This document shows positions 3,001-6,000 of a DNA stretch of 33,803 nt, in pieces. How positions within the stretch are numbered: position 1 is the stretch's first letter; each line of letters opens with the position of its first letter. Position numbers: made by a program. Source of the DNA: Escherichia coli (GTDB lineage: Bacteria; Pseudomonadota; Gammaproteobacteria; Enterobacterales; Enterobacteriaceae); NCBI RefSeq assembly GCF_003334335.1, contig NZ_QOWQ01000045.1. One strand, given 5' to 3'.

Positions 3001-6000
3001 GAATTGTTGCAGGAAAAGATGGTGAAGGGAAGCCGGTAAGCCAGGTTGCAATTTCGGCATCGCAGTTGTTTGTCTTTGACCCGAACAACCCGGATAACAC
3101 AGCCTATCCCTTTGTGGTGTCAGGTGGAAAAGTTGTTATTCCCAAAGCGATGATTTATGACGCGGTGATTGAAACACTGGTGTCGCGGAAGGTTGTGGCG
3201 GATGAGGTAAAAGCCGGGGTAAGTATCACTTCGCCAGTTATCCGGAGTGCCGTTATTCAGAACGGGAACTTTCAGGTTGATTCTCAGGGTAACCTGAATA
3301 TTGGTGGCCTTTTTAGTGTTACGTCGCAGGGGCAACTGACAATTCGTTACTCTAATCAGAATGTGGGGCTGGTGATCCGCAATGATAAAATTGAAGTTTA
3401 TGACCAGAACGGACGCCTGGCTGTTCGCATAGGCAGGTTAAGCTGAGCCGGAGGCTGACATTGGCAGAATATGGTTTTGCAATATACAACAGAAACAATG
3501 TTAATGTTACGGGCGTGCTTACTCCCATATTTTTCCTGGACAGGTTTACGGCGGAGTCGGGATCAAAAACGTATACGAATAAACCAGAAGGGAAAACATT
3601 GCAGGCAGTCTGTTCATTATTTCCGTGGAATAATGTATTTAAGGACCGGAAAGTACCGAAGATAACCATTAATGGCAATACGGTGACGTGGTCGAATCTT
3701 GAGCAGGGGATGGGGTCATATATTTATACATTCTGGGGGTGAGTTGTATGTATGGTTTAAGCATTACGAAACCAGATGGCAGCTTGTGGATAAGCCCGGG
3801 GTTTACGCCTCAGTGTCTGATCAATAAGGGAACTATTCCGGCGACTGAGAAGGCTTTTTTTAAAACATCAATCCCGTCAGGAAAAAGTTGTTTTTTCTTT
3901 ATCAGAACAGAGAAAAAGGCCGATGTCATGTACACACATGAACAGATTGATGGATATCATGCCTTAAGGCTTCATCAAATTGTCAGGGGAACGAATCCTG
4001 GTGTTACGACTGTTTATGCTTTTGCGAATATGGTTACTCAACCTTCTGAGTATGGTATTGCCATGTATAACCCGTCGGGTGAGATGATTTACCATGGCGA
4101 AATGATGCTGCTTGACGCGAAGTTAATACCTGTTGATATCAAATTTGAAAAAGACCTCGGATATCCATGTGCAATTATGCCTGCACTGGTTGGGTATTAT
4201 AACTGGCAGCGTACACCTTATGACCGACCGATTTACACCACATCAACGGGGGCTACAGGAAATAAAATATATTCCTGTGAGCATTATTCCGGTCGTGCAA
4301 CATGGGATATTCGGAAGCCGTATATAGATAAAGTGCTGGTCATTAATTCATCAATATATGACTGATATGCCTGTCAGTATGAATATTAAGTAATAAAACT
4401 AAATTCATCTTAGATAATACGGGGTTATTTTATTATAGGAAAAGTCTAAAAATGAAACATGCCAGAATTATTTTTGCGTGCACAACTTTTGTGATGAGTT
4501 TTGTAGCAGCCCCTGCCTGTGCAGCACAAGGTGACAGTACAGTTTCTTTCGGATACGCTCATCTTCAGCTCTCTGGACTGAACAATTTTGTTAAGGATTT
4601 AAGTCTTTATAATCTTGATACTTTTAACCGTTTTACAAACAGACACTACTTCAATTCAGGCGAATATGCAGATGCTTCTGTCCGGGGGCATGATGGCAAA
4701 GGCAAATCTCCTCAGGGGATGAACATCAGGTATCGTTATGAGATAACGGATGAGATTGGTGTTATAACATCTTTTACATGGGCGCGTTCTATGACTAATG
4801 CGCAGGCATTTATTGATGTTAACCCAGGAGATGAATCCAGAGAGGTTAAAAATCCGGCAGCTTCAGGAAGAACAGATATCAGAGCGAATTACTGGAGCCT
4901 GTTAGCGGGTCCTTCGTGGCGGTTTAACGAATACCTCAGTGTGTATGCAATGGCTGGTATGGGCGTAGCTAAAGTTACCGCTGACCTGAAAATTAAGGAC
5001 AACATTAACAGTACCGGTGGATTTTCTGAAAGCAACAGTACGAAAAAAACAGCACTTGCATGGGCTGCTGGTGCACAATTTAACCTGAATGAAAGTGTTG
5101 CTATGGATGTCGCGTATGAAAGCTCCGGATCTGGTGACTGGCGCACGAGCGGGGTTGTTGTAGGTATTGGCCTGAAATTCTGATCTGTATCCGACAACAT
5201 GTCATAACCCGCTGTGATGGCGGGTTTTTTGTTGCCCGTGCAGGGCAAAAATCGTAGATTATGCGCGGGTGCCTTTCGGCTGATGGCTGGAAGGTGAACC
5301 TGAAGGCCTGATGTGGAAAGGCCCCGAGTCAACTTTAATGTTAACCCGAGGCCCTGACCGTACAACCTTCACAAGTAGTAGGTTAGCGCCTCTCCACTCA
5401 GGAGACAAGCGTTATGTCGCAAAAATCGCTCATCACCGTCACAATTTGTATGACGGTAATCTTCACCATCTGGATGTTACACGGCTCGTTGTGTGAGTTC
5501 CGGCTGAATTTGTGGGGAGCGGAGTTTGCGGCGTTCTTACAGTGTAAGCAGTAGGAAAACCGCGACGGGGACGAAAGTCCCCGTCAACTGGTTGCTGAGG
5601 TTCAGCCGATATGGCACCCGTTTCTGGTGAGAGAATGGACGACACAATTCTCCGGTATATGCAGCGTGTTGTGAGAAATTCCCGCAACCCTGAATTTATG
5701 AATGAAGTTAAAGACGCCTGCCTTAAAAAGCAGGCGTTTTGCTTTGAAGCGCCGGATGGTTTTCTGGTGCTGCGTTCTGTGCTCAGTGACGATGGTATCC
5801 CTTATGTTCTGGTGTTACTGGGCGTGTGTACGGGGAGTAAGAGTGTTGAGCGTTATCTGCCGGAGGTGAAGACATTAACCCGCCTGGCTGGCGGACGCTG
5901 GGCCGAATTTCATACGGCAAGACGAGGATTTATCCGGCTGGGAAAACGTCTGGGCTTTGAGCGAATGCCGGATGATGAGGATGGCTTCATGGTGTTCAGG

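Follow-up and report, generated by a model that had tools for sequence, protein, structure and literature searches.

A probable hok/sok-type toxin–antitoxin cassette of the HokA-like branch in a Stx-phage-like prophage of Escherichia coli

Positions 5232–5619 of the window (the whole 33,803-nt stretch of E. coli contig NZ_QOWQ01000045.1 that was analysed) very probably hold an intact hok/sok-type type I toxin–antitoxin cassette of the HokA-like branch, carried as a moron in a Sepvirinae (Stx-phage-like) prophage and controlled by the mechanism proposed below; we put this reading, mechanism included, at roughly 80%. The cassette is self-contained, measures about 390 bp and separates lom from the gene that follows it in the prophage, and its branch is cluster 72 of Escalera-Maurer et al. 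The original prediction of a Hok-family type I toxin cassette as prophage cargo is supported by a sense promoter, a fold-back pairing, a 3′ stem–loop and a predicted antisense regulator. Its description of the locus as unannotated was mistaken, as RefSeq and several phage records already annotate the ORF at 5414–5554, the identical RefSeq protein being WP_000078907.1 (‘Hok/Gef family protein’). The gap is left empty only in old records, for example that of VT2-Sakai. Of 5,426 complete E. coli genomes, about 1,750 carry the same DNA, as do many Stx phages; within the window itself the module occurs once, and nothing resembling Sok was found elsewhere in it. A full-text literature search with the peptide sequence or the WP accession returned no paper, and the peptide appears only in a preprint's supplementary table. 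With the cassette annotated in databases and toxicity reported for the identical peptide, the locus is already known, and the only fresh point seems to be the apparent absence of the mok helper frame.

The toxin gene was delimited by ORF, profile, alignment, hydropathy and dN/dS analyses as a 46-codon plus-strand ORF (5414–5554) encoding MSQKSLITVTICMTVIFTIWMLHGSLCEFRLNLWGAEFAAFLQCKQ. The product has a predicted transmembrane helix at about residues 6–22, which is also the best 17-residue hydropathy window, followed by the motif SLCE..E.AAF and including both paired cysteines, Cys27 and Cys44. The Hok signature first noticed in this ORF is real: a homology search, named at the time as a possible refutation, gave a significant match to Pfam PF01848 (HOK_GEF; E = 4.7e-8, 33.0 bits), far beyond chance, with residues 8–44 aligned to positions 6–42 of the 42-position model. 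Residues C12, T14, L26, C27, E28, E37 and A39–F41 align with HokA and with the Hok of plasmid R1, and match the described conserved positions of the Hok logo. The best NCBIfam match is E. coli K-12 HokA (NF007290), with which the peptide has M-x-QK, W-M, SLCE, E-x-AAFL-x-CK and both cysteines in common; it differs from K-12 HokA in its genomic location and is only 43% identical to it. The HokA model scores 38.4 bits and the Hok family model 22.7 bits, both under their curated cutoffs (89 bits for the HokA equivalog), and by these profiles the peptide is HokA-like without being a HokA equivalog. The ORF is intact in all 36 unique viral modules, its dN/dS lies between 0.22 and 0.32, and the copy in O157 differs by seven synonymous and no non-synonymous changes. 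Taken together, these comparisons demonstrate, at the level of sequence, that the cassette encodes a Hok-family membrane peptide of 46 aa which is conserved and evolves under purifying selection. The identical peptide, 72_1589, has been cloned (LRP157) and entered in an arabinose-induced toxicity assay, as has a P2-type relative, 72_1621; toxicity was seen for 42 of the 45 homologues, and the three exceptions, 19_179, 60_1482 and 69_1540, do not include 72_1589 (bioRxiv 10.1101/2025.08.07.668861). At the protein level the locus thus does not differ from Hok cluster 72 of that study, the peptide being identical, and the RNA anatomy described here is additional.

On its upstream side the cassette adjoins an intrinsic terminator of lom (5206–5235, plus strand), found in a terminator scan and by inspection as a stem–loop with a T-run that abuts the hok −35 element; this terminator insulates the cassette against upstream late transcription. 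A weak σ70 promoter for the hok mRNA follows on the plus strand at 5232–5260, as had been proposed from the sequence, with −35 TTGCCC (5232–5237), a 17-bp spacer and −10 TAGATT (5255–5260). The pattern TTGC(C/G)n, 17 bp, TAnAnT is kept in 14–15 of 15 homologues drawn from four genomic contexts. The predicted +1 is G5267. Neither this promoter nor that of the antisense RNA was listed by a consensus promoter scan of the window, because they score 8 and 7 of 12, respectively, under the threshold of 9 of 12; both were identified through position, conservation and collinearity with the R1 type. The predicted full-length mRNA (5267–5619, plus strand; about 353–360 nt) is delimited by BLAST matches (query positions 18–390), by alignments A1 and A2 and by a minimum-energy fold with z = −5.6. 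Homology to copies in unrelated contexts stops exactly at 5619 (GGCACCC) in every context, and the comparisons show, again for sequence, a cassette bounded by conserved ends that recurs intact in unrelated mobile elements. The terminator scan listed no intrinsic terminator for the sense RNA after this 3′ end.

The fold predicted for the mRNA joins its two extremities. The RNA folding suggested earlier as a check recovers a long-range 5′–3′ pairing in the minimum-energy structure, in which a ‘tac’-like element at the 5′ end (GGGUGCCUUUCGGCUGA, 5267–5283, plus strand; supported by folds and RNAalifold, and invariant in A1) pairs with an ‘fbi’-like element at the 3′ end (UCAGCCGAUAUGGCACCC, 5602–5619, plus strand; supported by fold, alignment and truncation). 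The complementarity of cggctga (5277–5283) to tcagccg (5602–5608) had been recognized from the start and holds, but it is the inner half only; GGGUGCC (5267–5273) pairs with GGCACCC (5613–5619) to form the outer half, and the element therefore ends at 5619 and not at 5610. The ATG annotated as the start of the next ORF (5611) falls within the fbi-like element. The two 7-bp halves are 98% and 88% paired across 14 homologues. Within the branch, no covariation was found in this end pairing, both ends being invariant, and the end variants that occur (GGATGCC, GGGTGTC, AGCACCC and those of copy L076) are all one-sided; support for the pairing therefore consists of conservation and one family-level comparison. 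In that comparison, GGCGCUU/AAGCGCC of the R1 type corresponds to GGGUGCC/GGCACCC here, with four of seven positions differing and all of them compensated.

Removal of the 3′ end is predicted to switch the fold. The 5′ element then finds an alternative partner in a ‘ucb’-like box (GAAAGGCCCC, 5316–5325, plus strand), a pairing that is supported by the RNAalifold consensus, the Rfam alignment and the fold of the truncated RNA; the 5′ element is accordingly predicted to pair with the 3′ end in the inactive form and with 5316–5325 in the processed form. The ucb-like helix is the first helix of Rfam RF01794 (sok/hok leader), and RNAalifold returned the same helix. The leader scores 35.6 bits against this model (E = 2e-6), under the gathering threshold of 59 bits, compared with 113.5 bits for the hokW leader and 87.2 bits for an R1-type leader, which served as controls. 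In the 3′-truncated RNA, a predicted Sok-target hairpin forms (5348–5392, plus strand; arms 5348–5358 and 5382–5392, 100% paired and nearly invariant), and the accessibility of its loop (5359–5381), which contains a YUNR-like UUCA, rises from 0.23 to 0.5. Folds and homologue accessibilities further point to a hairpin at 5390–5404 (plus strand) in which an anti-SD sequence (CUCUC, 5390–5394) pairs with the Shine–Dalgarno (SD) sequence (AGGAG, 5400–5404) and closes the hok ribosome-binding site. Predicted SD accessibility is about 0 in the full-length RNA, 0.03–0.31 in the truncated RNA and about 0 when Sok is bound (13 of 14 homologues), so that the predicted opening is small. The hok start region (AUGUCGCAAA, 5414–5423) has its own predicted partner in a box at 5525–5534 (UUUGCGGCGU, plus strand), which is 98% paired and mostly invariant. 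Past the coding region lies a stable 3′ stem–loop (5563–5586, plus strand) supported by a scan, RNAalifold and covariation, with compensatory changes at four of nine pairs; the 9-bp GAAA stem–loop reported earlier at 5564–5585 (GACGGGGAC GAAA GUCCCCGUC) is this structure, which has 10 bp if 5563 and 5586 are counted. Its T-run is on the minus strand only. On the modelled structures, exonucleases that trim the RNA from its 3′ side, and so remove the fbi-like end, would probably stop at this stem–loop.

The minus strand carries the predicted antitoxin. Conservation and collinearity with R1 indicate a promoter at 5380–5408, with −35 TTGTCT (5408–5403), a 17-bp spacer and −10 TAACCT (5385–5380), which overlaps the hok SD sequence on the opposite strand. 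The −10 is invariant, the −35 is TTGnnn and the spacer is 17–18 bp in all 35 unique leaders, and the arrangement is collinear with the R1-type sok promoter (TTGCGC-17-TATCCT). The predicted Sok-like RNA, defined by this promoter and by hairpin conservation, is about 62 nt long (5373→5312, minus strand) and consists of a single-stranded 5′ tail of about 20 nt, a 14-bp hairpin (5353→5320) and a tail, UUUCCACA. The hairpin is perfect on the minus strand, counting G·U pairs, in all homologues and is maintained via compensatory changes; with a mean of −21.2 kcal/mol, the minus strand is always more stable than its sense complement (−13.1 kcal/mol). A Sok-like minus-strand RNA had been anticipated around 5380–5450, and this expectation stands for the RNA but not for its place: the interval named holds the Sok promoter, and the RNA itself would run from about 5373 to 5312. 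Together, these features identify in silico a candidate cis-encoded Sok-like antisense RNA with its own promoter, a terminator-like hairpin and complementarity to the hok leader.

The layout is collinear with that of hok/mok/sok of plasmid R1 (compared through the R1-type locus L021): a weak promoter, a 5′ end that pairs with the 3′ terminus of the RNA, a sok promoter over the hok SD region on the opposite strand, a Sok RNA of about 60–70 nt that ends in a long hairpin and whose complement carries mismatches, and a GC-rich stem–loop just past the hok stop codon, about 26–30 nt before the 3′ pairing box. It differs from the R1 type in that the peptide is 46 rather than 52 aa long and only 30% identical to R1 Hok, in its lower RF01794 score, and in that a conserved mok is missing, Sok here covering a region without a start codon. 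The same phage family also carries hokW-mokW-sokW of Sp5, VT2-Sakai and 933W (Takada et al. 2021, PMC8621323), likewise a Hok-family type I cassette in a late or accessory region. HokW, however, is a 51-aa Gef-like peptide (MKQQKAM...); its gene follows the giant gene, lies on the other strand and comes with an in-frame mokW and a sokW annotated as 71 nt long. We rejected identity with hokW-sokW on the grounds of a different peptide and a different place, as given by primers and annotation; a search of the window for hokW gave no match, and the phage-record label ‘MokW-like host killing’ for the 46-aa protein is a naming slip. In Sp5-type phages, the lom-adjacent cassette constitutes a hok locus additional to hokW.

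We propose that the weak promoter would yield an mRNA of about 355 nt in which the two ends are locked together and the SD and AUG are paired, and such a transcript would therefore be translationally inert, with the Sok-target loop hidden. Slow 3′ trimming back to the stem–loop at 5563–5586 would take away the 3′ partner; the freed 5′ end could then re-pair with 5316–5325, and the new hairpin would present the Sok-target loop and loosen the anti-SD. As long as the unstable antisense RNA of about 62 nt (5373→5312) is made, it would bind the processed RNA, with the result that the duplex is cleaved or the SD closes again. Once Sok synthesis stops, the processed mRNA would be translated and Hok would depolarize the inner membrane; element loss, transcription shut-off by an infecting phage and prophage induction are possible triggers. 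The most likely role of the cassette is that of a selfish addiction module or a stress-fired killing module.

The same cassette could instead be selected for aiding phage release on induction, as was shown for hokW-sokW of Sp5, a locus from the same phage family: after mitomycin C, it makes growth arrest set in faster and raises phage release twofold (PMC8621323). The location in the late region, adjoining lom, would suit such a role. The cassette is, however, also found at the att end of P2-like prophages, in an O157 island by ykgM and on IncI1 and IncHI2 plasmids, where a role in lysis timing is not obvious, and the hokW deletion strain kept the 46-aa hok locus; we therefore regard phage release as a rather unlikely primary role. 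More doubtful still is that the locus is an inactive relic, with a peptide that is toxic if forced and a native locus that, like the K-12 hok loci disrupted by IS elements, is silent. In K-12, IS150 disrupts hokA, mokA and sokA; earlier work, as cited in bioRxiv 10.1101/2025.08.07.668861, found no post-segregational killing mediated by chromosomal hok loci of E. coli; and a few copies of the present cassette are decayed as well (L016 is frameshifted, L017 is truncated, and the 5′ end is mutated in L076 and L034). Against decay as the general condition stand the ORF, intact in every unique viral module (36/36) at a dN/dS of 0.2–0.3, the invariance of promoters, 5′ and 3′ ends and anti-SD in copies whose remaining sequence diverges by up to 25%, the maintenance of the Sok and 3′ hairpins through compensatory changes and the spread of the cassette to at least four kinds of mobile element.

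The one component of the canonical system that we could not recover is mok. The frame at 5311–5496, 61 codons in the window, had been put forward as mok; in most homologues it is interrupted, with no start codon, and hence it is fortuitous. It was rejected as unconserved after all three frames had been examined, with ATG, GTG and TTG as possible starts, in 15 copies from genomes or plasmids and in the 36 unique viral modules. From the 5311 ATG, the frame reaches hok in only 3 of the 15 genome or plasmid copies; of the 36 viral modules, 13 have an upstream start of any kind from which frame 2 is open, and in five of them it is open from the −103 ATG that the window has. Stx-phage copies that are 92–96% identical have stops and no start in the 5311 frame, and copy L015 reads ATG-TAG. 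An in-frame Mok is possible in none of the 36 unique cassettes, as an invariant TAG (5384–5386) is followed by no start, and the stretch complementary to the 5′ tail of Sok contains no start codon. GAUGUGGAAAGGCCCC owes its conservation to RNA pairing with the 5′ end and to the Sok tail. A canonical mok-dependent arrangement, in which 5311–5496 encodes Mok, translation of Mok is blocked by Sok and that of hok is coupled to it, is therefore very improbable: the 61-codon frame does exist in the window and its ATG at 5311 is nearly invariant, with GAAGG upstream, at the edge of the Sok-complementary region, but the frame is unconserved, the canonical loci examined have Mok in frame with Hok and its start under Sok, and the invariant TAG closes that in-frame route here. 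Since no mok frame is conserved, hok translation is probably controlled directly, through the anti-SD switch and/or mRNA decay, without mok coupling.

For genome annotation the locus is ordinary: hok is enriched in prophages, and a Hok/Sok cassette is to be expected in one of E. coli. Public records have no RNA-level annotation of the branch, because it falls short of the curated threshold of the Rfam sok model. Sp5/933W-type Stx phages have two different hok loci, and because the 2021 study deleted only hokW-sokW, residual effects could stem from the lom-adjacent locus. A possible, tentative extension is that the cluster 72 branch, lom-adjacent in Stx-type phages and ogr-adjacent in P2-like prophages, is a naturally mok-less hok/sok variant in which Sok, acting about 30–90 nt upstream of the ribosome-binding site, controls hok directly via release of the CCUCUCC anti-SD and/or duplex cleavage, and that, as a second hok locus, it may contribute to the phenotypes of the Sp5 hokW-sokW study. 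Mok has been treated as integral to the hok/sok paradigm, and this branch appears to manage without it; if confirmed, it would provide a simple natural system for the antisense control of a type I toxin via an anti-SD switch.

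The 46-codon reading frame at 5414-5554 (plus strand; product MSQKSLITVTICMTVIFTIWMLHGSLCEFRLNLWGAEFAAFLQCKQ) encodes a Hok-type toxin, as originally predicted: the peptide matches the Pfam model HOK_GEF (PF01848; E = 4.7e-8) and retains the residues conserved across Hok proteins (C12, T14, L26-C27-E28, E37 and AAF), with both cysteines present and a hydrophobic window at residues 6-22. The closest NCBIfam model was HokA, at 38.4 bits far below its equivalog cutoff of 89 bits, and no further Hok-like peptide was found across the window. The hok frame is unbroken in all 36 unique viral modules, its dN/dS against diverged copies is 0.22-0.32, and the O157 copy differs at seven synonymous and no non-synonymous positions; decayed copies of the cassette are few (L016, L017 and L076). 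The 437 bp around the frame are 100% identical to Escherichia coli chromosomes, in which the product is annotated as a 'Hok/Gef family protein' (WP_000078907.1), and to Escherichia phage PhiR5_2; many Stx2a-converting phages match them at 93-96% identity, and in some of these records the frame goes by the name 'small toxic polypeptide' or, erroneously, 'MokW-like'. The cassette already has its database annotation and catalogue entries: a 2025-26 preprint on Hok diversity (10.1101/2025.08.07.668861) lists this very peptide (72_1589; cluster 72, plasmid LRP157) and a P2-type relative (72_1621) for arabinose-induced toxicity tests. In that study, which reports that prophages are enriched in hok and places Mok, Sok and mRNA structure expressly outside its analysis, 42 of 45 homologues assayed were toxic, and the three named as non-toxic include neither of these two cluster-72 peptides.

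Of 5,426 complete E. coli genomes, 1,750 contain related DNA, with as many as nine places in one genome. In Sepvirinae-type prophages the gene order is constant (tail fibre, lom, hok frame, 402-nt frame, small genes and a giant LPD-domain gene). Copies with 74-82% nucleotide identity are present in no fewer than three other settings: P2-like prophages, at their att end and directly after ogr (L007-L011, L013, L014 and L019); the neighbourhood of ykgM, both in an O157 island and on a plasmid (L012 and L018); and one IncI1 (L015) and one IncHI2 plasmid. In every context, homology begins at the promoter and ends precisely at GGCACCC (5619). Judged from these shared limits, the cassette is a discrete unit of about 390 bp (5232-5619) moved between mobile elements; its end lies at 5619 instead of the 5610 first given. 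The P2-like prophages carrying the post-ogr copy are inserted at several host sites; in L019 two copies stand in tandem, separated by 474 bp, and the 5' hairpin of L011 contains a duplication of 20 nt.

The predicted sense RNA starts at G5267, downstream of a plus-strand promoter (TTGCCC 5232-5237, 17 bp, TAGATT 5255-5260) that is weak, yet kept in all contexts, in agreement with its original placement at 5232-5260. In the minimum-energy structure of 5267-5625 (z-score -5.6), GGGUGCC (5267-5273) is joined to GGCACCC (5613-5619) and CGGCUGA (5277-5283) to UCAGCCG (5602-5608), the latter helix being the tac/fbi-like end pairing first proposed. Across 14 homologues these end helices are nearly invariant (98% and 88% paired), and in further viral copies no compensated variants were found, the variants there being one-sided. 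The R1-type hok/mok/sok locus, whose layout is collinear with that of the cassette, differs at four of seven positions in its ends (5' GGCGCUU, 3' AAGCGCC), every one compensated. RNAalifold favours, as an alternative, a helix between the 5' end and GAAAGGCCCC (5316-5325), the same one with which Rfam RF01794 begins; this model scores 35.6 bits (E = 2e-6) on 5267-5425 of the sense strand, short of its 59-bit threshold, against 113.5 bits for the hokW leader and 87.2 bits for the R1-type leader. The predicted 3' stem-loop (plus strand, 5563-5586; first placed at 5564-5585) is supported by compensatory changes in four of nine pairs. When the RNA is cut 3' at 5590, the 5' end is predicted to switch to pairing with that internal box, and a hairpin, 5348-5358/5382-5392, forms with loop accessibility rising from 0.23 to 0.5. 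The predicted behaviour is that of the fold-back and refolding scheme of R1 hok. The stem-loop at 5563-5586 is followed by a T-run on the minus strand only (tail CGGTTTTCC) and could terminate leftward transcription as well.

An antisense RNA was originally expected around 5380-5450. Such an RNA is indeed predicted, and that interval instead holds its predicted promoter (minus strand; TTGTCT 5408-5403, 17 bp, TAACCT 5385-5380), which lines up with the sok promoter of the R1 type (TTGCGC-17-TATCCT). Among 35 unique leaders, the -10 is invariant, the -35 is always TTGnnn and the spacing is 17-18 bp. The predicted Sok-like RNA (minus strand, about 5373 to 5312, 62 nt) comprises a 5' tail left single-stranded and a hairpin of 14-18 bp; where the stem differs among the Sepvirinae, P2 and E. 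marmotae copies, the changes are compensatory. The minus-strand hairpin is perfect in all homologues (mean -21.2 kcal/mol), whereas its sense-strand complement is disrupted by C.A mismatches (mean -13.1 kcal/mol), which points to selection on a minus-strand RNA.

The overlapping frame at 5311-5496, placed like mok, did not hold up as such. It is open from its own ATG in just 3 of 15 genome or plasmid copies, and the sequence in one copy is ATG-TAG. Of the 36 unique viral modules, 13 have frame 2 open from some start upstream and only five from the ATG that the window itself has at -103; few modules encoding the identical peptide keep this frame open. RNA pairing and the Sok tail account for the conservation seen around the 5311 ATG. 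The canonical loci compared have Mok and Hok in one frame, with the Mok start lying under Sok; here, an invariant TAG (5384-5386) inside the sok -10 sequence shuts that in-frame route, and no start codon follows. Control of hok could be independent of mok, in that Sok binding would free a CCUCUCC anti-Shine-Dalgarno sequence. The computed unpaired probability of the hok Shine-Dalgarno starts at about 0 with full-length RNA, reaches 0.03-0.31 after truncation and returns to about 0 with the Sok-complementary stretch blocked. This pattern, seen in 13 of 14 homologues, fits the model, the effect being small and purely computational.

Downstream, the annotated ATG (5611) of the next frame (5611-6012, plus strand; 133 aa, hypothetical) lies within the 3' pairing box of the hok mRNA; the phage P27 annotation uses a later start with its own ribosome-binding site. 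No terminator was found between hok and this frame, and read-through from the hok promoter is possible. A 252-nt frame (7221-7472, plus strand; mapped from L001 11038-11289), one of the cluster of small genes that precedes the giant gene (start near 8830), is a 'bacteriocin' in RefSeq (WP_000540391.1) and a 'hypothetical protein' in other records. About 1.25 kb (16271-17525) is unlike NZ_CP145707.1, whose giant LPD5-domain gene has an IS3-family insertion; the gene may be uninterrupted in the window. Two full-length minus-strand matches to sRNA-Xcc1 (RF02221; 20672-20757 and 21206-21294; 73.4 and 69.1 bits) were mapped onto NZ_CP145707.1, where each sits about 40 nt ahead of a same-strand gene for an antA/AntB-family antirepressor. 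A minus-strand match at 22762-22850 of VT2-Sakai (L022) is placed alike, upstream of H0160 and beside the att site of that phage, and the element appears to be a conserved structured leader 5' of these genes. The prophage/host junction appears to lie at about 21614-21697, at a truncated 4Fe-4S (ynfG-like) gene, followed to 33803 by host chromosome (ynfF, ynfE, ynfD, ynfC, speG, ynfB, ynfA and rspA/B) ending in another tyrosine integrase.

The cassette is not hokW, a different locus whose 51-aa peptide is Gef-like (primer YO-357 encodes MKQQKAM; Takada et al. 2021, PMC8621323). In VT2-Sakai, mokW/hokW/sokW follow the giant gene on the opposite strand, and the counterpart of the cassette, a gap of 430 bp from lom to H0145, is unannotated. 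Phages of the Sp5 type therefore have two distinct hok loci (6784-7212 and 19816-20090 in VT2-Sakai), of which the window has the lom-adjacent one only. That locus is unmentioned in the Sp5 hokW-sokW study (PMC8621323), and the 2021 hokW-sokW deletion strain would still contain it. On the sequence evidence, the locus is a genuine hok/sok-type type I toxin-antitoxin cassette, apparently functional and borne by the prophage as cargo, which may serve in element retention, exclusion of other phages or lysis timing, the last being the role shown for hokW (PMC8621323).
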